Source: Sphagnum compactum (Eukaryota). Taken from it: 64,000 nt of DNA. The notes under the pieces are model-generated. The model was not told the DNA's origin. It saw only the letters and a list, made by a program, of their open reading frames with translations, and ran no database searches. The position numbers and the translations under genes were made by a program. This document shows, piece by piece, positions 4,148-59,125 of this stretch; position 1 is the stretch's first letter, and each line of letters begins with the position of its first letter. The stretch is taken from contig OZ234493.1 of NCBI GenBank assembly GCA_965153455.1, forward strand, positions 4,030,001-4,094,000, written 5' to 3'.

Positions 4148-4404
4148 TGCACAAGGAAAACAAAAACTAATGCGAACATTTAACTTCAAAATGCCCCAAG
4201 AGCTTTTACACACTGGAAGAGCACCTCCAAATATACTACAAAACTTGTGGGAGGTTTTTATAGTTTTTGAAATGCCTTCCTGGCTATTTTATTTTTCCCA
4301 TGATACCCAAAAGGTACCAATGCGAAAAAAATTAAAAACGTATAATATTTTTGGAATGGGTCTTTGTGTTGCCTTGAGCTTTAACTCCACACTTAAAAAC
4401 TTTT

Positions 4405-4725
4405 TATTGGCCTTGCCTACCAAGGCAAGGATATTGTGTTTAGATTCATTATAGAGTATAGTAGCTTAAGGGATTTTGGCCCCTAGGTAATAATAATAAT
4501 AATAGGTCTATTTTTATATGAGGATTTTTGAAAGATGATATTTAGGCTTGTGTTGAAACTTGAGATTAGTTATAGAGTTCTAATATCTTGAAGGACTTTT
4601 GGTTTCTTTTAGAGGGTTTTTTGAAGGTTATATTTTGGCATGGTGAAATATTTGAGTTTCCATAATTCTTCTTTTTGCCTTAAGATACTCTTTAATGTAA
4701 ATGGCAAGGCCACATTTGTGACACA
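4405..4725 (+). repeat. Dispersed repeat ending in TGTGACA (probable LTR 3' end), copy 1
   Basis: The same ~250-300 bp sequence occurs at 19610-19853 (+) and 58492-58805 (-); all three end in TGTGACA. Confidence 0.8.
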
Positions 4726-5515
4726 CCACCCCTTGTTTCTATTTGGAAGCAAATAGGTAAGCAGATCTTATTGCCAAAGAAGAAAGCAACAACCCACAAG
4801 GCCAAAAATTGCCCCCACACTCAACCACTGTGAAGGGTGCATGTGCATGTGTGCTCTTCACCTGTCAAAGACTGCTCCAGAAACTACCCTTTCACACCCA
4901 AAGACTAAATCACATACATACATGCCTTTCACAATTTGAAGGCTCTTCATAAATTTGTTCTAGGTTCTAAAAATATATTGACCCCTAATGAAGCAAAAAA
5001 AAATTTGGGGGGGGGGGGGGGGAGAAGAAAAATTAGGAAATTAGGAAAAAATTATTAAATTTTTAGTCTAATTTTGACTTTTTAAAAAAATTTAAAATAT
5101 TTTCAGATTTTAATAAAAATTTTGAGGGAAAAAAAAAACTTGGAGGTCAAAGATGGAAAAAAATTAAAATTTTCAGTTTTTGGTTAGGTCTTTTTTGAGA
5201 TAGATATTTATATATGTAATGCAATTATTTGATTTTTCAAAAGTGCATGCATTGGGCCTCTAGTTGGTTAGGGTTAGTTGGTCCACCATTTGCCTCCATT
5301 TTGGACTCATAGGGTGTGACCGACAAGAGGTGGTTCCAACATTGGGATTCTTTCAAAGAAAAATTGTCACCTAGCGTGACATTCCAAAACATGGAAAATT
5401 CAAAGGTTTCATTCTTATTTGAAAAATAGCATTTTGAATTTGACCTTATTACCCCGTGGTGCTGTACTTGGTCAATACGGTTGGTTGCCGTACTAGGATA
5501 CATGGATTGTCAAAA

Positions 5516-11719: not shown

Positions 11720-12920
11720 TAACTTCTGCAGTGGTAAACAAATATGCCCCATACGACGACACCCACTAATCCAAGAGCCGTGTAGGGCTCTCAACTTTTT
11801 TTATTTCAAATCTGAATTTGTATGAAAACCATGTCTTGCACTTTTCCCTATACATGTGGGTAATAGTTTAAACTTTGTCTCTGGTTTTACAGCCATGTGA
11901 GATATGGCCCTAGGTTTCTGCCAACTATTCACAACAAATATACCCATGGTAAACATGATGCACAAATGATCGCCATAGTATATGTAAGCTAGGGCCACAT
12001 TTTGACACCGTAAATGTTCTAAAGGTGTTGTTTGTGGAGTGAGGCTATTAGCACGCAACCAGATTTTGAATAGGGACAAACTTCTACACCTATCAAATTG
12101 AACACATGGGTATGTTACTATTTTCATAGACACAACTAACAGAATGTCTACAAAGGAAAACTTAACATATTTTAACCATCCAGATCATGGATCCATTTGG
12201 GAAGGTTTTTGTCATGTGTTAATTGTCATCTAGATGGGGACCTATAAATAAACAGATTGAGTTGTGGCCTTGTCTTCTTTGGAAATTAACAGCTCAAATG
12301 CCTCCCAAATGTGTGCCGTTAACATGGCCTAATTAGTGCATATGTAAGCGAGCAAGTAAGGGATGACAAGTTGTGGAATTGGGAGTTTACATGGGCTTCA
12401 CAACATGGGGTGAATAAAATGTAGTGCCCGTGTAGCAAATGTGAAGGGAGGGGCTACCCAATTTTGCTTCACGCAAATCATGAACATCTCATTCATAATG
12501 GGAGGCATCCATTATTCAAGGTGTGGAAAGGCCCTAGGCTAATTGACAATTTTAATGAAGAGTGGGCTGCATCAACCAAATCACCACAATAAACAGGGCA
12601 ACAAGTGGTGGATGAGGGCATAAATCTGAGACAACTTTTGGATCATCTTTTCCCACTTGCAAAGATGCAATGAAGGGGTCATTGATGTAACAAATGATAT
12701 TGTACATGACCAACCTGCTGCCTATGGAATGAAAGAATTATAGATTATGCAAGATGCATGTGAGATCAGTTGGCATCCATACTTGAGAGCATGCATGGCT
12801 AATTAAAGGGCATTTGTGATGATGGTGATGTAGCCCAACCCATGGGAGAAGTGAACCCTAGGATGGGAGCAACAAGGGTGGCACTTGACATTGATGGCAT
12901 TTCAAGTGAAATAAACCAGT
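11720..12920. mobile_element. Degenerate CACTA (En/Spm) transposase fragments
   Basis: Plus strand near 12380-12535 reads WEFTWASQHGVNKM*CPCSKCEGRG...HEHLIHNGRHPLFKVWKGP, similar to the transposase-associated CPCxxC...HL domain. Weaker minus-strand fragments lie at 11720-12300. Confidence 0.5.
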
Positions 12921-13179
12921 GCACCACAAAGGATGGATGGTATTTAAGTTTTTCATCTATTTTTATTGTTCATTTATTTTTATTTTTCATCCATAATTAC
13001 TGTTCATCCATGCTCAGTTACTTTTTTATTTATTACCGACCTACTAATAATCTACAAGCAAGATTTTAGTGGGTTGTTAGTAGGTAGGTAGTACAAATAG
13101 TCCATACCTATGTACAAACATATAAACTACAAGCCATCTACATACTTACCAAGTAATCATTTATTTTCCTACCTATCTA

Positions 13180-14600
13180 TCTACTTATATAATATCCTTG
13201 GCTGGTCGTCCTTTCCATCCATCTGTCCCGTCATCCATCATCATCCGTCCCATCATCCGTCCCCTCATCCGGACTGAAGATATTTTGTGACTCCCCATCC
13301 TCCTCCTGTTGCAGCAACCACCCATTCAAGGTCAACGATGATTGGTTGGGCTATCCCCATTATAGTAGTCATATCCTGAACTTCTCAACCACAAAATTTC
13401 AATTAGATTTAAGTTTTAATCATCCACAAGACCTAACCATAATGTTTCATGAGATTGATGTGGCACAACTGCAGATTGCTGCTATAGCAAAAGAGGAAGA
13501 GGAGGAGGATCCAAGCTCGACTTGCGGTGGATGCGAAAGAAGAAGAAGAAAAGGGGAAAGTGGAGTGGTCTCCAACTCCCACTGCAACAGCAAGCTGCTG
13601 TGACCCAAAAGAAGAATCTGTAGATTGTTGCTGCAACAGTAGCAAAGGAAGAGGAGGAGGATCCAAGCTCGACTTGCGGTGGATGCAAAAGAAGAAGAAG
13701 AGGGGAAAGTGTAGTGGTCTCCAACTCTCGCTGCAACAGCAAGTTGTTATGACCCAAGAAAAGAATTTGTAGATTATTGCTGCAGCAGCAGCAAAGGAGG
13801 AAGAGGAGGAGGATCCAAGCTCAAGTTGCAGTGGATGCGGAAGAAGAAGAAGAAGAGGGGAAAGTGGAGTGGTTTCCAACTCCTGCTGCAACAATAAGCT
13901 GTTGTGACCCAAGAGAAGAATCTTCAAATTGTTGCTGCAACATCAGCAAAGGAGGAAGAGGAGGAGGATCCAAGCTCGACTTGCGGTGGATGCAGAAGAA
14001 GAAGAAGAGGGGAAAGTGGAGTGGTCTCCAACTCCCGCTGCAACAGCAACGACAACAACAACCTGGGAATTCCAACAACAACAACAACGGCAATAGCAGT
14101 AAGAAGAGCGAGAGCCGGAGTAGGAACAAGAGCAGAGGTAGGAGCAACAGGAGTTGACGGACGTGGGAGTCATGAGTTCAACTTCCAATGGGTGACCTCG
14201 CAGCAGCAACAACGACAATGGAGCAACTGTTGCAGCCGGTAATGGAACAACTGCTGCAACCAGCAATGGGGCTGCTGCTGCTGCTGCTCCTATGACCCAA
14301 GAGAAGAATCTGCAGATTGCTGCTGCAACAGCAGCAGAGGAGGAAGAGGAGGAGGATCCAAGCTCGACTTGCAGTGGATGTAGAAGAAGAAGAAGAAGAG
14401 GGGAAAGTGGAGTGGTCTCCAACTCCCGCTGCAACAGCAACGACAACAACAACTTGGGAATTCCAACAATAATAACAGCAGCAGCAACAAGAAGAGCGAG
14501 AGCCGGAGCAGGAACAGAAGCAGAGGCAGGAGCAACAGGAGTTGACGGAAGTGGGAGTCATGAGTTCAACCTCCAATGGTTGACCTCGCAGCAATAGCAA
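13180..14600 (+). repeat. Left arm of a long inverted repeat; internal tandem array
   Basis: Reverse complement of 16882-18299. GGATCC sites at 13507, 13659, 13811, 13966 and 14354 give spacings 152, 152, 155, 388. Confidence 0.97.
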
Positions 14601-14639
14601 TAGCAATAGCAATTTCAAGAGTTGGATCATAAAAGATTT

Positions 14640-16330
14640 TACTCACATCCATTCTTGAAAATCTAGAAAGCACACTGTGATTTAACTCCAGCCACAGAAG
14701 TTTTGCATACAGCTCACATGTATGATATTCAAGGAAAGTAGACCTTCAGAGGAAACCTCCAAATTTGAATGAGGGAACACTAAAAAACTTCACCTCTTTT
14801 CTGGCACTATATTACGATACAAAAGTATATCCAGGCAGGTGCTGCTTGCTGATACCTTAAATTTTGTGTCTTCATAGTAGCGTATCACATAACCCCAGCA
14901 AATAAAACTCATACAGTTGCAGCTACTCGTGCACTTTCTGCCAGAAGTGGTTCATGTGTCTCCTTCGTTTTGTGACCTGCATTAATTGGTCACCCACCCC
15001 AAAAATCCAACAACCATCTTTCTTCATCAGCCATGATTGAACTCTGTAATGAAACATTGAAATCTAATGCACAGTATTTGTAAGTTCTGTTTCAACAAAA
15101 CAAATTTTGCATGATCACCACATTAGCCAAAAGGATCATCACATAGACATGATCTAAGAACTATGAGAAGCAAAAAACATTCTATTGTTGTTGAAATGGT
15201 AACAATTTGAGGCTGAGGAGGTATCAATTTGAGGATTAGAAGATACCGATTCATGGAATCAGAAGGTACCAAATTGAGGATGAGAAGGTACCCATTTGAG
15301 GCTGAGAAGAATTATGTAAGGAAACCTACAATTTGAGGTTGGCAGCTGAGTAAAAGATCTAATGTAAGATTTAGAAGAGATTTGACATTCATACCCAAGC
15401 GAGCCATGAAGGCAATTAGCATCAAAGACACTCCTGTCAAGCAGAGATCAGCTCCAAAGAAGATACCAATCACTTTCAGAGACTCGTTGAACAACCAAGA
15501 GCTTATAGCCAGAATTGTGAAAGCCAAGATGATTGATGTTAAGCCACTGATCATCACTGCTGGCCATGTTGTCAGATACCGCAATTGGCATGTCAACAGC
15601 AGCTTCAACACTCCCTGTAAGCTCCCACAACATGATGCCATCAGATCATGGCACAAAGCTCCAACTGTCAAGTGATAGTATAATGGAACATTGTTTCTTT
15701 GATAAAGAGTGGATCTCCATCAGAGAAACCATGATCAAGGGTTAATGGAACTGGGAAGTCGTTCTGAAACTTGCATTGTCCACAGTACCAAGAAGACTGA
15801 GTAACTCACTCATGGCTTCAGGAATCACAACAGGATCTTCAGGAATGGTGATAGGATCCATTGCTGCAATGTTATTCACATCATCTAGTTGCTCAGTGTC
15901 GCTTGGAGCGTTTGGTTCATGCTCCAACAACTCCTGAGCCTCCATTTCATTAAAGAGATCATGAAATGTCGTCAGTGTGGAGGGGATTCCATCGAGAGGT
16001 TGCTGCTTTAGGACGAAGTTGAAATTCTCTCTTGCCTCTTTTTCTTCTTCCAAAGCCACTACGGCATCATGAGTAGGAACTTCTGCCGCCTCTAACTTTG
16101 ATGGAAGGCGTTATGAACACTGTACCAAAAAGTCTTCGTCTTTCTCCTTTTTCCCCTCTGCTTCTGCCATGCCCAAGTCAATCGTCAGGGGTCAATCGTT
16201 AGGCTATCTCTAGATCCATATCTCACCAGCTTCACAAATTCCACTCCTTGCAGGAAGACGATGACTAAAGCTTGGATCACGAAGCTCGCTCTTCCAGAGG
16301 CTCTGCACAACTGCAACTCATCAATACTGG
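14640..16330 (-). pseudogene. Unidentified gene-like fragment in the foldback spacer
   Basis: Acidic protein-like frame LPSKLEAAEVPTHDAVVALEEEKEARENFNF...TTSQFH (about 16110-15742) bounded by stops and a frameshift. Minus-strand splice-like signals occur near 15044, 14977, 14855 and 14646. Confidence 0.45.
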
Positions 16331-16881
16331 CACTCTAATTGCCTTAGACTATCCAAAGTTGGCTCGATGATGTTAACTATTTAAAACCGCAAACATTTCA
16401 GCCCCCCCTTTGCAACAGTTGCTCAAAACTCAAAGTTTTAGTGTATGTAGGAATGAAATGATCAGGGCGCCTGGGCCCACGTCCTAGGTTTTTGCAGAAT
16501 TGACGTAGCCACCTCTCAAGCCATCTGAGGACCCACTTTTGATCTCGGACCCATCAAATCTCTGGGCAGATTGATGGCTGCTAAGCTGCACCCGCGCCAG
16601 TGCTGCACAGTTTTCTTTCACAGCAACAGGTGAGAGGAAGAGGAAGAACCTTGACACCCTTGGAGGCGGCTTGCTTGAACCATGGATCCTCTTGTCCTAT
16701 GGATTCCATTTTGCCCTTCTGTGGTTTCTTCTGGATTTCAGCAGCTGTTGAGAGTGCAGCTCCATTTCTGGTCTTGTTGTTGGCATTCTTTTCTTGGGTC
16801 ATAGCAGCAGCAGCAGCCCCATTGTCGGCTGCAGCAATAGTTGTTCCATTGCCGGCTGCAGCAGCAGTTGCTCCATTGCCG

Positions 16882-18299
16882 TTGCTATTGCTGCGAGGTC
16901 AACCATTGGAGGTTGAACTCATGACTCCCACTTCCGTCAACTCCTGTTGCTCCTGCCTCTGCTTCTGTTCCTGCTCCGGCTCTCGCTCTTCTTGTTGCTG
17001 CTGCTGTTATTGTTGTTGGAATTCCCAAGTTGTTGTTGTCGTTGCTGTTGTAGCGGGAGTTGGAGACCACTCCACTTTCCCCTCTTCTTCTTCTTCTTCT
17101 ACATCCACTACAAGTCGAGCTTGGATCCTCCTCCTCTTCCTCTGCTGCTGCTGTTGCAGCAACAATCTACAGATTCTTCTCTTGGGTCATAGGAGCAGCA
17201 GCAGCAGCCCCATTGCTGGTTGCAGCAATTGCTCCATTACCGGCTGCAACAGTTGCTCCATTGTCGTTGTTGCTGCTGCGAGGTCACCCATTGGAAGTTG
17301 AACTCATGACTCCCACGTCCGTCAACTCCTGTTGCTCCTACCTCTGCTCTTGTTCCTACTCCGGCTCTCGCTCTTCTTACTGCTATTGCTGCTGCTGTTG
17401 TTGTTGGAATTCCCAGGTTGTTGTTGTCGTTGCTGTTGCAGCGGGAGTTGGAGACCACTCCACTTTCCCCTCTTCTTCTTCTTCTGCATCCACCGCAAGT
17501 CGAGCTTGGATCCTCCTCCTCTTCCTCCTTTGCTGATGCTGCAGCAACAATTTGAAGATTCTTCTTTTGGGTCACAACAGCTTATTGTTGCAGCAGGAGT
17601 TGGAAACCACTCCACTTTCCCCTCTTCTTCTTCTTCTTCCGCATCCACCGCAACTCGAGCTTGGATCCTCCTCCTCTTCCTCCTTTGCTGCTGCTGTAGC
17701 AGTAATCTGCAAATTCTTCTCTTGGGTCACGACAACTTGCTGTTGCAGCGGGAGTTCGAGACCACTACACTTTCCCCTCTTCTTCTTCTTTTGCATCCAC
17801 CGCAAGTTGAGCTTGGATCCTCCTCCTCTTCCTTTGCTACTGTTGCAGCAGCAATCTACAGATTCTTCTTTTGGGTCACAGCAGCTTGCTGTTGCAGTGG
17901 GAGTTGGAGACCACTCCACTTTCCCCTTTTCTTCTTCTTCTTTCGCATCCACCACAAGTCGAGCTTGGATCCTCCTCCTCTTCCTCCTTTGCTGTAGCAG
18001 CAATCTGCAGTTGTGCCACATCAATCTCATGAAACATTATGGTTAGGTCTTGTGGATGATTAAAACTTAAATCTAACTGAAATTTTGTGGTTGAGAAGTT
18101 CAGGATATGACTACTATAATGGGGATAGCCCAACCAATCATCATTGACCTTGAATGGGTGGTTGCTGCAACAGGAGGAGGATGGGGAATCACAAAATATC
18201 TTCAGTCCGGATGAGGGGACGGATGATGGGACGGATGATGATGGATGACGGGACAGATGGATGGAAAGGACGACCACCCAAGGATATTATATAAGTAGA
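16882..18299 (-). repeat. Right arm of the long inverted repeat
   Basis: GGATCC sites at 17123, 17508, 17663, 17815 and 17967 (spacings 385, 155, 152, 152) mirror the left arm. Reads TCTACTTATATAATATCCTTGG from 18299 on the minus strand. Confidence 0.97.
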
Positions 18300-18896
18300 T
18301 AGGACCTACTTCTTACAGAAAGGCTTACCCAGGTGAAACCAGCCATTAACCCACTTGAGGTCCATCCTGACTGAGTTGTAATGGGCAATACAGTGAATGG
18401 TGCACTGGTGGGTGCAGGTTCACTCTGGCTGGCTGGGTAAGAGAATCTCCACCCCGCACCGGCAACCAACTCCTTTTAATGATCATCGTCCCCACCCACC
18501 CACAAACGTCATAAAAGTCCCTTTAAACACTCAAAGACCATTTATGTCTTTACATCTGGACGAGTAATAGTCACTGTCCAAATCCATAGTAGAAAAAAAA
18601 AGCTTCTAAAGGGGTTAAAATGACCACTGCAAAATGGACCATCAATACCAGAGAGCAGCAGGATTTGCACTATCCCTGCTGCAAGAAGATTTGGCTCGAG
18701 TGCTGGAGGGTTTTTGCCGATGTGGGGGTGGAGATGCTCTCTCTAAGGGACATTCATGGAGACATTCCTGAAATGCCCTCCCCTGGGAGATTCCCTTTCA
18801 CGTTCTCAAGAGCACATACAAAAAAAAATATAATTGGGAAAATAAGTTTGTCCTTGGGCCCTTAGTTCATGAGTGGCCTCTAGCACCTGTGGTGAA

Positions 18897-19208
18897 CAGC
18901 CTCTTTTTCTAGTGGTGAAATTTTGCCAAAAAGCTAAATTCAAATTTCAAAAATCAAGTGGTTTTTGAGCTTTCCATTTGCCAGAAGTGAGAGGGGAACA
19001 AAAAAAAGTAGTGAAAATCGCCAGATTTTGTACTTGGTTTTTTTAATGTTTAGCCAAAATATAGAAAGATGATTAATGATTTGTATTTCATGTTTGGTTT
19101 ATAGCCAGATTTGACAACCTTACCAGAGACGATTGCTCACTTTTTCTTAATCTTCCTATGGATGATAGCCACTTTGGCTAGAAACCAAAATTCTTTGACA
19201 AAACACTG
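18897..19208. mobile_element. ~310-bp MITE-like element, CAGCC...CACTG termini
   Basis: Starts CAGCCTCTTTTT and ends AAAACACTG. Shares 'aaaatcaagtg', 'aaatcgcca' and 'atagcca' motifs with 7790-7938 and 60094-60400. Confidence 0.5.
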
Positions 19209-19609
19209 CCTGTGAGGGTCAGCGTAAGCTTTGTGAAGAGTAGAGACAAATTGATGAAACCCTGCTAATCATAAATAAATCAAAGCACCCCAAAAAAATA
19301 GGGGGAGTACAAAGAACAAAATGAAAGGACCCACATCCAAGAAGACAAAACGATCACCTAAGAAGGTAAACCACAAAGGGAACATCAAGTTCTCGAAACC
19401 CCTCTTTTTGCAAGAAGCATATCAAATAAGGAAAGGGGAGGACCTCCTAAAAGGATGCCTAGCCTAAAAGAACCCTCAGATACTGTAACAGCACATCTCA
19501 AAATAGAGACCGCTTGCACACACCATAACACCCTTTGTCTCTAAAATGTGTACAAAATTGAGAGAGGAAGGCCTCCAGCTCCCTTCGCTCCCTACAAATC
19601 TAAACACAA

Positions 19610-19853
19610 TAGCTTAAAGGATTTTGGCTCCTATGTAATAGAACTATTTTTATATGAGGATTTTTGAAAGATGATATTTTGGTTTGAAACTTGAGATTAG
19701 TTATAAGAGTTATAATATCTTGAAGGATTTTTGGTTTCTTTTAGAGGATTTCTGAAAGATTATATTTTTGTAGGGTGAAATATTTGAGTTTCCATAATTC
19801 TTCTTTTGCCTTAAGATACTTTTTAATGTAAACGGCAAGGTCACAGTGTGACA
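19610..19853 (+). repeat. Dispersed repeat ending in TGTGACA, copy 2
   Basis: Aligns by eye with 4463-4725. Confidence 0.8.
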
Positions 19854-21049
19854 TGCCCCCTGTTTTTTAATGAGGAAGAAAACATAAAGCCCCTAAAACC
19901 TTAATGTAAACTTAAAACCTAAATCCAAAACCCTAAACATTAACCTACTACCTTAACCTAAATCCAAAACCCTTAACCTTAACCTACTACAGTAAGGCCT
20001 TAGGGTTAGATAAGGGGCCTAGATCAGTGTCTTTTTAGGTTTAGAAAAAAATCAGATTAGAATATAAATTTTAGGCTTTTTAAAATTACATTATATATAT
20101 ATATATATAATTAATTAATTAATGATTAAGAAAATTCTCAAAATTACCTTTAAGGTAAAAGAAGGGGTCAAAATTATAGTGCTAACTGGTTATATTGCCA
20201 ATTTTTCACATTACGGACATCGTCGTATGGACCGCCTCCTCCTCCTTCTTAAAAGAAAGGCTGGCCTACATGATGCCTTCAGCCATGAATTTGGTAATGT
20301 CCCCCCCCCCCCAATGAACCTCACTCATATTCAAGCACCGGGTTAACGTTATGATGAACTTAAACATCTGTAAAGATCTCTTCCTGTTTCGCCTTTGGTT
20401 CTATAGGCCTATTTTGGGGCCAAATTTTGCCGAGTTTGGGGCACTTCCTATGTGATGCATTATTGCACACATAAAGGCCCTTGCTTGGGGGTATTGAACA
20501 CATGTAAGACCCCTTTACAAAGGGATGTTACTATTTATACTAGTTTCAACAGGTTTTCATGAAGGATAAGGCTCACCATTTTGGGTATTCTGGCTGTAAG
20601 CTTGGATATAGGGAGCTTTACAACCATAACACCCTTAAGGGGGAGCCTTATGCTCTAAATAGATCACTAGGGGATGGAGTGGAAGGCACCTTATGCATGG
20701 GTGGACTCATAGTACCTAATCTCTTTTTTTGGGAAAAAAATTGCCAAAGGGTGACACTAATGGAAAAAAACCAATTGTTTTATCACAAATTTTGGTCAAT
20801 TTTTGCTTCTTTTTTTTTTTTTTCTTGGAGAGCATGCTGCCATGATTTTGTCTACTTGCACTTGTTTTAAATATCCTTTATTCCTCTTTTGAGTGGCAAA
20901 TAGTAGTGGGATTCCTTGCAATGTGACTTTGGTCCAAGTGGGAGGTGCCTTCTAATTTAATTTTGAGGATGCATACAATAGGAAATTTCTTCCAATGCTT
21001 TAGAAATAAGACATTTTTTAATCTCTCAAAATTTAAAGGAAAGAAAGTT

Positions 21050-39719: not shown

Positions 39720-40112
39720 CAAGTTTTCATAAAAAATCAAATTGCATACTTAAAGAACTTGTTCTTGTGTTTTAGAATATTTTTTCCATATTTTTGGTTT
39801 CAATTTGAATTGAACAAAAGACTAATTTCATGATTTGATTCTTAATTTCATGATTTGGTTCTTGTGCTAGTTCCAACAAAAAGATGTCTACTTGGGTCTA
39901 GGTCACAAGAACATGAAATGAACCCTAAACCCTAGACCCAAGTAAACATCTTTTTGTTGGAACTAGCACAAGAACCAAATCATGAAATTAAGAATCAAAT
40001 CATGAAATTAGTCTTTTGTTCAATTCAAATTGAAACCAAAAATATGAAAAAACATTCTAAAACACAAGATCAAGTTCTTTAAGTATGCAATTTGATTTTT
40101 TATGAAAACTTG
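39720..40112. repeat. Near-perfect hairpin: 183/182-bp arms, 28-nt loop
   Basis: 39720-39902 versus 39931-40112: 3 substitutions and 1 indel counted by eye. Confidence 0.97.
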
Positions 40113-40780: not shown

Positions 40781-41242
40781 CCCAAGGTGCAAAGTGTAAA
40801 CCCAAGTTGGATGAATGAGGGTGCCCCTTGTTTGGAGACTAATAATATGTTGGGGTACATCCATCCACCAGAAACCTCAATTGATGTGGGGTCTAATGTA
40901 TTGCTCCAGCATTAGTGGGGGAGCCCGGAATTGGTCAAACCCAAGGTGGAAAGTGTAAACCCAAGTTGGATGAATGAGGGTACCGAATTTGGAGACTAAT
41001 AATACGTTGGGATTCATCCATCAGAAATCACAATTGACGAGGAGTTCAATGTATTGCTCTAGTATTAGTCTGGGACCGATGACCGGTCAAACCAAGGTGA
41101 AAATTGTAAACCCAAGTTGGATGAATGAGGGTGCCAAGTTTGGAGACTAATCAAGACGTTGGGATTCATCCACCAGAGACCACAATTGATGAGGGGCCCA
41201 CAGTATTGCTCCAGCATTAGTGTGGGGCCGACAACCGGTCAA
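40781..41242 (+). repeat. Three tandem copies of a ~150-160 bp unit just upstream of ATP3
   Basis: CCCAAGTTGGATGAATGAGGGT at 40801, 40960 and 41111. Confidence 0.95.
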
Positions 41243-41438
41243 GCCGGTTACCGTCTCTCTCGTTCCGCCAGCGTTCCTTTTTGCGTCGCGTCTCGTCCCA
41301 TTTTCCGTTTTGCTGTTGTTTTGTGTGGCGGAAGTGTTTGTGTGCGAGGTGCTTGCAGCCGAGGCGCGGTGTGCCCTAGAGATCTGCATCTGGGTTTCTA
41401 GAGATTGGCTTGCACAGCGGAGTTTTATTTTTTGCGCC

Positions 41439-42452
41439 ATGGCTTCGGGAAGTGCACGTCCTGGAGGTACGCGCCTCGCGAAGCTTTTATATGGAAATGT
41501 GAACTCGTATTTGTCTTCGGGAGCCGCGGGGGTTAATGGCGGTGGCGCCGTATGGGGTTCGACTACGGGTTTGTCGTCCGCGGAGCTAGCTCCCTTCGGA
41601 GCTAGATCCGCTTCGGGGCAGATCGTGAGGAATAGAATGAAGTCGGTGAAGAGTATCCAGAAGATTACCAAGGCGATGAAGATGGTGGCAGCTTCCAAGT
41701 TGCGGAATATTCAGGTGAAGGCGGAGAACTCACGGGGACTTTGGCAGCCGTTCACGGCTCTGTTGGGCGATGCACCGGCGACTAAAGTGGATAAAAAGCT
41801 GATCGTGACCATCTCGAGTGATAAGGGATTGTGCGGGGGTATCAACTCCACGGTTGTCAAGTATTCCCGGGCGCTCTTTAGGTTGAATGGCCTTGATGGA
41901 CCAGACAAGGATGTCAAGTACGTGATCGTGGGCGAGAAAGGGAAGGCGCAATTGCAGCGTGATTCTAAGAAGCTGATCAGCATGTACTTTGGAGAGACGC
42001 AAAAGAGCAGCATCTGTTTCACGCAGTGCTCCATGATGGCAGACGAGATCATCAAGTCCAATGAGTACGATGCCATCCAGATGGTGTACAACAAATTCAA
42101 CTCTGTCGTCTCTTTCCAACCCACCGTTGCCACCCTGTTGTCCCCGCAGCTTCTGATTGGAGACCAGGAAGTCACTGGAGACCTAGATGCTTACGAGATC
42201 GAGGGAGCAGACACTAAAGAAGAGGTACTTCATAACTTGTCAGAGTTTCAGTTTGCATGTACCATGTACAACGCCATGTTAGAAAACGCGACCAGTGAGA
42301 TGGGAGCCCGTATGTCAGCCATGGAAAACTCCACTCGGAATGCCAGTGACATGCTCGACCGCCTCACTTTGACCTACAATAGGTCACGGCAGGCATCCAT
42401 CACCACAGAGCTGATTGAGATTATATCAGGTGCTGCCGCTCTGGAGGGTTAA
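41439..42452 (+). CDS. ATP3: Mitochondrial F1 ATP synthase gamma subunit, 337 aa, intronless
   Basis: GCCATGG start and a presequence poor in acidic residues. Motifs RMKSVKSIQKITKAMKMVAASK, ISSDKGLCGGINS, SEMGARMSAMENSTRNA and RQASITTELIEIISGAAALEG. No chloroplast-type dicysteine insert seen. Confidence 0.97.
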   Translation: MASGSARPGGTRLAKLLYGNVNSYLSSGAAGVNGGGAVWGSTTGLSSAELAPFGARSASGQIVRNRMKSVKSIQKITKAMKMVAASKLRNIQVKAENSRGLWQPFTALLGDAPATKVDKKLIVTISSDKGLCGGINSTVVKYSRALFRLNGLDGPDKDVKYVIVGEKGKAQLQRDSKKLISMYFGETQKSSICFTQCSMMADEIIKSNEYDAIQMVYNKFNSVVSFQPTVATLLSPQLLIGDQEVTGDLDAYEIEGADTKEEVLHNLSEFQFACTMYNAMLENATSEMGARMSAMENSTRNASDMLDRLTLTYNRSRQASITTELIEIISGAAALEG

Positions 42453-44109: not shown

Positions 44110-45750
44110 AGACACCACAGTCCATGGCAGGGTCTATTCTGAATGAATCTAGAAATGTGATGAATTTCAGAGAACTTCCTCATTTCACAGTAAGCATCAA
44201 CTAGAACTCAATAAGTCACCTCACTTGGCCTGCAGCCACGCTTCTTAATAGGTTTGATTCTGTTCCTAGAACTTCCCAGCACTTGCATAGCAGCTGATGG
44301 AAGTGTTGTATGTGAAGATGTCAGGTTGAAAGCCACAGCAATCATCTCATGTAAGATCCTAGCAGCTTCATCCATCAGCCCATGCTTTTGAAATGCAAAG
44401 ATGAGTGTGTTGTATGACACAAGGTCTGGCATCTTTCCAACTGCTAGCATCTCCCTTCTGTCCTTCTATGCATCCCTTCTTCCCCATACATGCTCATCAT
44501 GCAGTTATAGGTGACAATATCTTGAGCCAAACCTGTCACCTTCATCAGCTCTAGTATCTCTGTGGCCTAGTCCACTCTTCCATACAGGGCAACTGTAGCA
44601 TTGAATGTGTTCATGTCTGGCAAGTGCCCATGCTGTTTCACTTTCTGAAATGTGAGCTCTGCTTCCTCAAGCAAACTGCACTTGCCATAAATGAGAACAA
44701 GAGTCTTGAGAAGAATTTTACTTAAGGGGAATTGTTCTGCAGACAAATTCTCAATTGCCTTTTCTAAGTCTTGGCACTTGCCCATCTCGTGAATAAGCAT
44801 GCAACAAGGAAGCATAACCAACATCATTGGGCTTGTTTGTAGTTGGCATTCTTCAGCTCTTCTAACACCAACTCCGCTTGCTCCCACCACCCTTTCTCTT
44901 ACAAGGGCAGCCAACAATGTGTTGAAAGTAGCCATGTCAGGTGTGGATCCAGCCCATAACATGCCATTGTAATATCCCCAAAGCCTGCTCTGCAGAACCA
45001 CATCTCCCATTGGCATCATCAATTGGTGTGTTAAATGTGGCCTTCTCTGGCTTACACCCTTCCTTCTTCATATCACAGAACACCTGACAACCAGCAAAAC
45101 ATTAGAAGATCAATGCCTGACCTAGGAAATGGCATTCACACTTGCACAATGCATTCAAAAGGGTCACAAAACGTCTTCATGCAAGCCGTTCTTGCCAAAG
45201 ATGACTCCCAACAGAGTGTTCCATGTCACAATGTCTGGGGCACATCCACATGCCTGCAGTCACATCATAACATATTCAAGGACTTAGCCATAAAGGAGCT
45301 CTGAGACATGAAACATTGCTGAAGAAGCTACTTCTCCTCTGTATGTTAGTGTATGCATGAAATTGAACCTCTTAATATTGGTCATGCAGACTGCCTAGCA
45401 TGGTAGAAAAGTTCATTTATGGCTTACAACATTCGGAGGACACCCAACATCCTCCATATCTTTCAACACTTTGGATGCTTCCTCATGCTAACCTGCCTTT
45501 CCATAAACATCCACAAGTGCATTATTTGTAACCTAGTCTGGCAAACACTTGGCTGCCTTCATTTGTGCAAAGATTTTCTAGCTTCACATAGTGGTGCCCG
45601 ACACACGCATAGTGATTGCAGTGGTGTAGGTGTATTCATCACACCAAATCCCCTGTTCCTTCATCTGCCCATAGATCTCAAGTATCTATAATTCTCCCTC
45701 CACTACCCTTTCTTTCCATATAGGTCTATCACTACATTACATTGTAACAC
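44110..45750 (-). pseudogene. P-class pentatricopeptide repeat pseudogene, At5g02860-like, 5'-truncated
   Basis: PPR motifs in shifting frames: NVVIDLYGKKG, CDEYTYTTAIT, NALVDVYGKAG*HEEASKVL, PDMATFNTLLAAL, LLKTLVLIYGKCSLLEEAE...LPDMNTFNATVALYGR, PDLVSYNTLIFAF, GCRPSEVTY*. Many stops and frameshifts; no introns evident. Confidence 0.9.
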
Positions 45751-58200: not shown

Positions 58201-58491
58201 CATTGAGAACTTGAGGAACATAATTGAGAACAAGTTGAGAACATGATAGAACACAAGAATAAAAAAAAGGCCCAAAGGAAAAAAATGAAATGAACCCTCT
58301 TTAGTGTATGTTAATTGGCTGCTGAAGGAAATATTTTTATTCCTATTCCTAGACATGTCCCCCTCCCCCCCCCCTTTTTTGTTTGGCCTTGGTTATTACC
58401 CCTTCTAGAAAGCACGCCATACCTATCCATACATATTTGATTGAGAAAAAAAACAAGTCACAAAATCAAAACCAGTTGTGAACAAGGGGGT

Positions 58492-58805
58492 GTGTCACAC
58501 TATGGCCTTGCCATTTACATTAAAAAAATCTTAAGGCAAAAGAAGAATTATGGGAAATTTAAATATTTCACCACGCAAAAATATAATCATAAAAAAAAAA
58601 TCCTCTAAAAGAAACCAAAATCCTTCAAGATATCATATTAACTCTATATCTAATCTCAAGTTTCAACACAAGCCAAAATTATCATGTTTCAAAAATCCTC
58701 ATATAAAAATAGACCTACTACCTGGGGGCCGAAATCCCTTAAGCTACTAGACTCTACAATGAATATAAGCACAAATATCGTTACCTTGCTTGGTAGGCAA
58801 GGCCA
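58492..58805 (-). repeat. Dispersed repeat ending in TGTGACA, copy 3 (inverted)
   Basis: Reverse complement of 4405-4725. Confidence 0.8.
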
Positions 58806-58817
58806 ACAAAGAATTCT

Positions 58818-59125
58818 TGTTGGGAAATAAAACCAAAGCAAAGAATTTGTCGCCTATGTTCCCTAGGAGCTGTTGAGGATGAAGAGCACCTGTTGCTAGT
58901 GTGCCCAGCTCACCATGACATTCGTTGCAAGTTTGATCAACAGCTAGGGAAACAGTTGACACCATGCAGCTTACTGCCTGAATTGATGCATTCGACTACT
59001 CAAAAAGCGATAGCTTTGTACTTAGTTTCTTGCCTAGATAACAGGAGTGTTTTGCTCAAATCAACTAGGTAATAGTCGTCAACTGGATCTCTCTGGTCCG
59101 GATATTGACGTTAAATAAAAGATTC
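58818..59125 (+). mobile_element. 5'-truncated LINE 3' end with a CCHC knuckle (RTEX-like motif)
   Basis: Open frame WEIKPKQRICRLCSLGAVEDEEHLLLVCPAHHDIR...KSTR* (stop 59070-59072), followed by a short 3' UTR with AATAAA. Confidence 0.75.

Follow-up and report, generated by a model that had tools for sequence, protein, structure and literature searches.

A Sphagnum compactum foldback with the 5' head of a Helitron family at both outer ends

What kind of element is a foldback that begins like a Helitron at both of its outer ends? The question is raised by positions 13180 to 18299 of the 64,000-nucleotide stretch of Sphagnum compactum DNA analyzed here (the window). The arms of this foldback, 13180-14600 and 16882-18299, enclose a spacer of approximately 2.28 kb (14601-16881). 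As claimed in the original prediction, the inverted arms are near-identical: in a global alignment, 13180-14600 and the reverse-complemented 16882-18299 gave 1385 matches, 33 mismatches, and one 3-base gap (97.7% identity over 1.42 kb), and the arm-to-arm K2P distance in a local alignment was about 0.025. We also saw again that both arms start with TCTACTTATATAATATCCTTGG directly after an A and that homology stops within 3 bp of this point. The inverted match reaches just 3 bases further outward, CTA/TAG, at 13177-13179 and 18300-18302. Transitions account for 30 of the 33 arm differences, and 23 of these 30 are at CG or CHG sites, to which 216 of the 693 arm cytosines belong. The arm differences show a methylation-type pattern, and this CG/CHG bias indicates that the arms aged separately and rules out an assembly duplicate.

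The foldback terminus is a 5' head that is present at 94 metagenome loci, found with a search pattern that left bases 1 to 7 free. Most of these loci start with TCTACTT, and they have 52 distinct upstream flanks. The preceding base is A in 36, G in 15, and T in 1 of the 52 flanks, and TA stands directly before the head in just 27. When the loci were grouped into 61 distinct ones, a tail match was located 0.7 to 6.1 kb downstream in 16 of them, 13 ending in CTAG and 15 being followed by T; one of the 16 (L050) ends in TCCC followed by A and is not a true end. The grouping merged some loci that are preceded by a tail, and L054, whose own tail was seen, lies outside the 16. No tail was found in 4 kb or more of downstream sequence at 9 of the 61 loci, and 36 contigs were too short. 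One locus, L024, is a complete Helitron of 2319 bp that ends in CTAG before T and carries the same exon modules behind its head. The comparison strongly supports assigning the terminus, as a 5' head, to a canonical HLE1 family of non-autonomous Helitrons, and the Helitron origin proposed earlier is borne out, since other loci of the family end in CTAG before a T. The subterminal hairpin of the family is predicted as an imperfect stem of 6 to 8 bp (-2.5 and -2.8 kcal/mol), and shuffled sequences were equally good (z of -0.09 and 0.89). The head pattern gave 0 matches in viral contigs.

At the other end, the foldback departs from its family. As noted originally, there is no convincing hairpin-CTRR-T in 13000-19500, and neither type of family tail had a match within 4 mismatches anywhere in the window. 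On sequence grounds, the foldback is a 3'-rearranged Helitron copy and not an intact family member. The original prediction had envisaged that other copies of the head might end in CTAG or in an inverted second head. CTAG ends were found, and a converging second head was present at 0 of the 94 loci; at least 3 kb of downstream sequence was available in only 33 of them and at least 5.2 kb in only 21, and the breakage of short-read assemblies at long inverted repeats weakens this count. Among the 94 head loci, there was no evidence of mobility as a unit.

The family resembles the non-autonomous HLE1 Helitrons of maize, as characterized in the available sections of PMC2267711 and PMC11417382, in the host purine (mostly A) preceding its 5' TC, the absence of target duplication, CTAG before T, several gene fragments with an intron, and the lack of coding capacity of its own. 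Unlike the maize elements, the foldback has no CTAG end and carries its own inverted 5' 1.42 kb there instead. HLE2 elements (Helitron2/Helentron) are described in the same sections of PMC11417382 as having short asymmetric terminal inverted repeats and inserting between two T's, whereas the family here has TC and CTAG ends and targets of A or G followed by T.

The content of the foldback is asymmetric. Sequence and family comparison place the 5' TC of a minus-strand Helitron (18299-18298) directly after a host A at 18300/18299, and the right arm (16882-18299, minus strand) is probably the original 5' part of this element. Rfam gave 0 matches in the 64-kb window, and Pfam, run on 12 window ORFs, returned nothing credible within the arms or the spacer; the identity of the cargo was established through homologues only. 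All features that follow lie on the minus strand. Positions 16629-18006 hold the 5' coding exon captured from an atypical kinase gene of the ABC1 type, with tandem re-copies of 152 to 155 bp and 385 bp followed by an uninterrupted copy (17168-16629) extending past the arm boundary. The exon matches P0012 at 88% over 182 amino acids and residues 1-96 of P0015 at 84%, and P0015 carries the Pfam ABC1 domain (E value of 6e-84). The captured kinase presumably resembles Arabidopsis ABC1K8/OSA1. A 185-base piece in the same orientation as the right head (16281-16465) is shared with another family member, matching L051/L055 at 93%, where it is located at +1052 to +1239 from their head. The N-terminal exon fragment of an RFWD3-like RING/WD40 E3 ligase (15790-16170), with a stop codon inside, matches P0001 at 83% over 127 amino acids and P0003 at 93% over 45 amino acids, the latter a homologue that matches WD40_RFWD3 (E value of 4e-44). 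The 3' part of a membrane-protein gene (14613-15641) was recognized by tblastn with P0004-P0011 at 65 to 97% identity. It comprises an exon at about 15641-15395, a GT-AG intron at 15394-14977, whose ends were read from the sequence, and a last exon to about 14912, beyond which lies 3' UTR or downstream DNA. The donor is a moss gene; 4 homologues tested had no Pfam match, and there was no usable Atlas match.

The spacer cargo is all in the orientation of the right head, and the right copy runs in frame through the ABC1 exon over the arm boundary. The left arm (13180-14600, plus strand) consists of an inverted copy of the first 1.42 kb of the element, namely, the head, the tandem ABC1-kinase exon modules, and a mid-exon break: the tblastn match to P0012 halts at residue 128, at position 14607. 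Both arms are mostly tandem re-copies of the captured exon. The contrast between a continuous right copy and a broken left one, together with the cargo orientation, argues for a left arm that was copied by fold-back from the right.

Both flanks, 13060-13179 on the left and 18300-18410 on the right, lie in a dispersed CCTAC-rich host repeat and would represent the downstream and upstream flanks, respectively, of the minus-strand Helitron. The suggestion that they form one interrupted sequence was confirmed, since they are colinear and contiguous in a paralogous repeat copy (L055/L065). Approximately 8 to 12 target-repeat bases are either absent at the left "head" or concealed within it. In the paralog, the 12-mer immediately preceding the point where the right flank starts agrees with the head in 10 of 12 bases, a level reached at 16 of 117,376 background positions. 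Within the host repeat, 2 of 516 local 12-mers matched at 9/12 and 0 of 516 at 10/12; however, this repeat is rich in CTAC/CTAT, which raises the local chance of a head-like 12-mer above the genome background and speaks against fold-back copying. In a control comparing 16 other tail-bearing loci with the reversed head, none reached 10/12, the best being 9/12 at one locus, a near match that weighs against fold-back copying. The L055 paralog alignment scored 169 when 4 to 12 head bases were counted as flank versus 157 when it was cut at 13179. Also unfavorable to fold-back copying, the paralog is only about 70 to 80% similar to the flanks, and its two flank ends are separated by 8 bases instead of 12. 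In a related organism, B, the orthologous contig aligns to 13191, not 13179/13180, and continues with 216 unlike letters, probably representing an orthologous empty site. Flank divergence between organisms A and B (12 of 314 and 15 of 269 letters) exceeds the 2.3% divergence of the arms. The orthologous flank in organism C was not covered by run X11. A pattern for the empty site had 0 matches in prokaryote genome contigs, a result that carries no information for a moss.

These comparisons single out two short homologies. The outer one (13177-13191, plus strand), made up of CTA and the 12 bases that open the left "head," is host-repeat-like and may be the return point of a fold-back copy. The inner junction (14601-14612, plus strand) contains two extra TAGCAA units behind the arm's own GCAATAGCAA; it is the putative fold-back point, and the units probably represent short templated filler or microhomology. 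The evidence favors the right junction (A before TC, 18299/18300) as a true transposase junction and the left junction as a repair-type one, and such a pair suggests a one-off derivative rather than a unit shown to move. The "double-headed Helitron derivative" of the original prediction fits the locus as a description of its structure, but not as a unit shown to move.

Read data were placed on 12000-13465 only, for 4 of 23 listed sets (X2, X9, X11, and X22). Run X2 has the same organism label as the best-matching run, X1, and comes from a different study. Its 1899-base contig, covering 12000 to 13235, spans the left junction and carries a C at 13202 that is private to the left arm; in X2, this C was at no more than single-copy depth. 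Word depth in X2 was about 37 to 42 on 13242-13465 versus 11.8 on the flank, a rough hint and not a copy number. Derived changes are found on both arms, with 7 on the left and 10 on the right among 17 polarizable of 35. Four arm differences are split between the outgroups L024 and L068, which counts against fold-back copying; all four look like CG/CHG sites by eye, although they may instead be polymorphism shared from two source copies. A further point against fold-back copying is the loop length, as 2.3 kb is long for priming by simple fold-back.

We favor, with a probability of roughly 0.55, a single Helitron that lost its 3' part and acquired in its place a copy of its 5' part by fold-back, with joins at the two microhomologies. 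The starting element would have been a non-autonomous HLE1 Helitron on the minus strand, with three fragments of host genes that read in the direction of the element. The copied strand would have stopped about 3.7 kb along, within the last cargo gene's 3' UTR, and would have re-primed at a (TAGCAA)n stretch on the 5' part of the same element. Copying would then have run 1.42 kb back through the head and probably rejoined the downstream flank, whose first 12 to 15 or so bases resemble the reverse complement of the head and may mark the rejoining point. The normal CTAG end would have been lost, and the resulting foldback would carry a head at each outer end. Both switches could have occurred during resolution of the insertion, or replication or repair at a later time could have produced them. 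There are precedents for both halves of this scheme, as Helraiser moves without its 3' end, some such ends overlapping the target by two bases (PMC4778049, in part), and a fold-back-and-return model for tandem inverted duplications is given in the available text of PMC4689423. Most likely, the structure arose from a single accident of DNA copying and does not represent a new type of transposon, and the outcome is best explained as a single methylated, decaying locus.

The same final structure is expected from two opposed insertions followed by a central deletion. Two copies of the same subfamily would have entered in opposite orientations, 8 to 12 bases apart, at a head-like target, and the palindrome center would have been lost asymmetrically with both CTAG ends. 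We regard this as a genuine but minority possibility. Clustering is common in the family, 15 of the 94 head loci sitting directly behind their own or another tail. According to the portion of PMC4778049 considered, Helraiser in vitro cuts the top strand of the LTS at TC and the bottom strand at an internal AT, so that a head-like flank could attract both orientations, and asymmetric loss of palindrome centers is described in a section of PMC4689423. However, two hits within about 12 bases by a few-copy subfamily (a number resting on the rough depth hint), plus a deletion, are required, no local hopping is reported for Helraiser in the same portion of PMC4778049, and the arms have one module arrangement in common, most of their differences lying at methylated sites.

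It is improbable, in our estimate, that Helitron transposition itself made the foldback, with a peeled strand self-primed, copied to its own 5' end, and resolved at a head-like target, so that a reversed head can substitute for a 3' end. If this were true, such double-headed elements could be mobile as units, or they could serve as hairpin genes directed at host exons they had captured, in this case that of the ABC1 kinase. We give still less credence to a double-headed derivative, formed elsewhere or during strand peeling, that inserted, or is still inserting, as a unit between A and T with the inverted head as a noncanonical 3' end. It would account for A before TC at both outer junctions, arms that match to the first base, and flanks contiguous within about 12 bases, and the 3' end of Helraiser is dispensable, with 24% activity in its absence (PMC4778049, in part). 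Unit insertion is opposed by the missing converging second head at the 94 loci, many on short contigs, and by the private C13202, which in X2 was at no more than single-copy depth, and it leaves unexplained the 8 bases in the paralogs and the match of organism B to 13191.

A cut-and-paste element with long terminal inverted repeats (TIRs), either Foldback/Mutator-like or Tc1/mariner-like with a TA duplication, is very unlikely. Modular arms around a cargo spacer recall Foldback anatomy (PMC4079207, in part), and TA is present on both sides. Nevertheless, no long target duplication was seen in the several registers compared by eye, the flanks differing apart from TA, and a duplication of 8 to 10 bp was absent at every register tried. 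The family flanks, 27 of 52 ending in TA and 15 in G, led us to reject the TA duplication considered in the original prediction. The same head pairs with CTAG before T elsewhere, and the arms are mostly captured exon that continues into the spacer on one side only; these features contradict a long-TIR element. The "undescribed long-TIR cargo element" of the original prediction likewise fails on the count of converging second heads. An assembly artefact, to which long inverted repeats are prone and against which read support covers the left junction only, is almost negligible given that the arms differ by 33 substitutions, biased toward CG/CHG transitions, and by one indel, and that the left junction with its private allele is present in the independent run X2.

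Several known systems share parts of this structure. Helraiser insertions lacking the right terminal sequence, products of one-ended transposition, likewise have an exact 5' junction and a noncanonical 3' end that overlaps target bases; unlike the foldback, those are simple truncations or read-throughs with a 2-base overlap, and the passages of PMC4778049 covered describe no inverted 5' copy. FoHeli of Fusarium oxysporum (PMC5148889) and a head-to-head maize pair (PMC2267711) also have more than one head per structure, and the sections of both papers drawn on here propose that composite Helitrons nested in opposite orientation and then lost their inner termini. FoHeli repeats, as reported there, are direct, shorter than 200 bp, and in HLE2 elements, and the maize partners are dissimilar, whereas the heads of the foldback are inverted and outermost, with arms 97.7% alike over 1.42 kb. 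As in tandem inverted duplication by FoSTeS/MMBIR (PMC4689423, in part), two short-homology switches yield an inverted copy and an asymmetric loop; the foldback would differ in returning beyond the lost 3' part and in an outer homology between a transposon head and a head-like target. The Foldback/Mutator-like Tetris similarly has long arms with internal tandem repeats and a noncoding middle, but elements of its type form families with 8- to 10-bp duplications (PMC4079207, in part), while the foldback has no duplication and a rolling-circle terminus. In the literature searched, most subscription journals lying outside its coverage, we came across no account of a Helitron with two inverted heads like this one.

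The original prediction further proposed a source of hairpin RNA, which is unsupported. In polyA run X22, of which about 12% was read, 43 reads fell on 12000-13465, all of them partial and none 99% alike, and there was no depth on 13323-13465 of the left arm. The stem contains host ABC1-kinase exon sequence, and any transcript across both arms would form a 1.4-kb duplex with it. In maize, captured fragments draw siRNAs onto donor genes (bioRxiv 10.1101/777037, in part).

As a one-off case, the foldback is of modest weight: it shows how a Helitron can come to look like a long-TIR or Foldback element and be placed in the wrong class. It also illustrates cleanly how gene capture can lead to a long inverted repeat whose stem holds host exon sequence. 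Should more copies with the same inner junction exist, or should fold-back be a normal finish when a 3' end is absent, the finding would bear on how Helitron 3' ends are resolved.

The arms of the foldback (13180-14600 and 16882-18299) aligned at 97.7% identity, with 1,385 matches, 33 mismatches, and one 3-base gap, and the inverted match stopped 3 bases beyond the terminal TC. The original prediction of near-identical inverted arms, with homology ending within 3 bp of that TC, was therefore correct. Thirty of the differences were transitions. Of these, 23 fell in CG or CHG contexts, which account for only 216 of the 693 cytosines of an arm. This is how methylated repeat DNA is expected to age at a fixed site. 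A contig from another study with the same organism label (run X2) covered 12000-13235 with three differences and retained the C at 13202 that is private to the left arm. At 12314-12890, 577 bases are present in the window and in X2, and 6 letters stand instead in the contig of a relative, organism B. The skipped part starts with TG and ends with CA and may reflect either an insertion in A, the organism of the window, or a deletion in B.

Using a pattern of the Helitron 5' terminus (head) with its first seven bases left free, we matched 94 metagenome loci, nearly all of which begin with TCTACTT or a close variant. Their upstream flanks comprised 52 distinct sequences, ending in A (36), G (15), or T (1). 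Among 61 distinct loci, a match to the family 3' terminus (tail) lay downstream of the head in 16, with T as the next base in 15; it was absent over 4 kb or more in 9, and 36 were too short to tell. The head stood directly behind a family tail in 15 of the 94 loci. The predicted hairpin of this tail was weak and no better than that of shuffled sequences. One member, L024, shares the head and modules at 91.7%; it is a complete Helitron of 2,319 bases and terminates in CTAG|T, with a stretch of its flank duplicated just after the CTAG. The arm terminus is a Helitron head. This agrees with the Helitron-like 5' termini proposed for the locus, the head being common to 94 loci whose tails, where seen, mostly read CTAG followed by T. 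The reported lack of a convincing CTRR end also held, as the window contains no family tail.

It had been asked whether other copies end in CTAG or in an inverted second head. The former was found in 13 of the 16 tail matches. A converging second head occurred at none of the 94 loci (33 with 3 kb or more downstream, 21 with 5.2 kb or more), a negative limited by the breaking of short-read assemblies at long inverted repeats. The one contig listed twice has both heads on the same strand. In members L045 and L067, an inverted head segment lies upstream in a back-to-back arrangement. In L045 (1-1528), head bases +21 to +207 recur in inverted form (98%) 1.1 kb upstream, back to back with another head; since the contig starts and stops within its two arms, the inverted repeat may extend further. 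This may represent a second fold-back event of this family, with the heads inside. Another member, L068 (head to +1381), has no tail, and about 33 bases of the flank upstream of it recur at its end.

Tandem re-copies of an ABC1 atypical kinase gene's first coding exon, in units of 152-155 bp and 385 bp, make up most of each arm. On the right side, this exon (17168-16629, minus strand; 88% over 182 residues to the homologous protein P0012) crosses the arm boundary, and in the left arm it breaks off at residue 128. The spacer holds, in right-head orientation, a 185-base sequence match common to family members L051 and L055, an RFWD3-like exon, and the 3' part of a membrane-protein gene (its final two exons, the intron, and the 3' UTR). 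The host is a moss, the named best protein matches being from Sphagnum species. P0006 (S. jensenii), a membrane-protein match, begins at the same junction-made ATG as the frame in the window, and a sister copy of the cargo in the S. jensenii assembly is suggested. Because the right exon runs on while the left stops, the cargo follows the right head, and L024 has the same head and modules, the minus-strand stretch from 18299 to about 14613 is a single ordinary Helitron with captured gene sequence but no 3' end, and the left arm an inverted, truncated copy. At the inner junction, two extra TAGCAA units follow the arm's own GCAATAGCAA. The complete 3,790-base L055 carries a multi-exon gene fragment at about +1300 to +3350 from its head, which by eye resembles a dynein heavy chain.

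Both flanks aligned in order to one paralog upstream of L055/L065 (metagenome loci), indicating one host repeat and substantiating the view of the flanks as a single interrupted sequence. Between the flank ends, the paralog has an additional 8 bases, similar to those at the loose ends of five paralogous contigs of run X9. The 12 paralog bases that immediately precede the right-flank point, TCTACCTATACA, agree with the head, TCTACTTATATA, at 10 positions. A match this good was found at 16 of 117,376 background positions and in none of the flanks downstream of 16 other family insertions, where the best was 9. In the orthologous contig of organism B, the match to the left flank reached 12 bases into the left head (to 13191) and was followed by 216 unlike letters; the match should end at 13180 for an exact A|T empty site and at 13179 for a TA duplication. 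By this comparison, the empty site in organism B would be neither. The proposed TA duplication also failed at the family level, with TA ending only 27 of the 52 distinct upstream flanks.

The window contains other features. A smaller AT-rich foldback at 39720-40112 (393 bp, 93% self-complementary, loop of about 28 bases) has no target duplication obvious by eye. An intronless ATP synthase gamma-subunit open reading frame (41193-42452; Pfam ATP-synt, E 1e-77) adjoins a 152-bp tandem array at 40781-41242, and a minus-strand frame at 44567-45067 gave weak PPR-repeat matches below curated cutoffs. A dispersed repeat roughly 300 bases long occurs three times (4395-4753, 19610-19882, and 58481-58818), its copies being 82 to 84% alike; family Helitrons lie in or beside this repeat at several metagenome loci.

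The foldback descends from and works like a canonical Helitron (HLE1), although the present copy lacks the 3' end. Membership tests for Foldback/Mutator, TA-duplication, and HLE2 (Helitron2/Helentron) identities failed; of the double-headed Helitron derivative or undescribed long-TIR cargo element first suggested, the Helitron descent stands and the long-TIR element does not. Among published structures, 8- to 10-bp duplications are a feature of Tetris (PMC4079207), Fusarium shows opposed nesting as well as short 5'-end repeats in direct orientation (PMC5148889), and maize has a dissimilar head-to-head pair (PMC2267711). The features that define HLE1 and HLE2 are given by HELIANO, which also notes an HLE2 family in Sphagnum magellanicum (PMC11417382). 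No description of the exact arrangement was found in the literature searched, which was of incomplete coverage and excluded supplements.

We favor, at a probability of roughly 55%, replacement of the 3' part of the Helitron by a fold-back copy of its own 5' part, rejoined by short homologies. The family identity, arm asymmetry, tail loss, contiguous flanks, and head-like 12-mer in the target repeat are shown directly. The Helitron would have joined by its 5' end at A|TC, and copying would have halted after about 3.7 kb, re-primed at a (TAGCAA)n stretch on the element's own 5' part, gone back through the head, and returned to the downstream flank via 12 to 15 bases of homology. These steps match the fold-back-and-return model of inverted duplications (PMC4689423), as well as the finding that Helraiser can insert without a right end, the new end then overlapping the target (PMC4778049). 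Of 17 changes that could be polarised, 7 were derived on the left arm and 10 on the right. The divergence between the arms is lower than that of the flanks from organism B, as would fit an event later than the split from B.

Two opposed insertions at the head-like site, with subsequent loss of the palindrome's centre, would give the same end product and are a possible but clearly less favored route. A double-headed unit that moves is unlikely, as no second copy was shown and, in X2, the private allele of the left arm had single-copy depth. A cut-and-paste TIR element is contradicted and highly improbable, and an assembly artefact, likewise contradicted, is scarcely credible; mixtures take up the remaining probability. 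The foldback is real and well resolved, a structural variant of a familiar type, and most likely arose as a single accident.

On 12000-13465, the polyA run X22 gave 43 reads, all partial and none 99% alike, with no depth on 13323-13465. Because about 1.1 kb of the stem derives from the ABC1-kinase exon, small interfering RNAs against the donor gene could arise from a read-through transcript. In this Helitron family, 3' ends may often be resolved in a repair-type manner.
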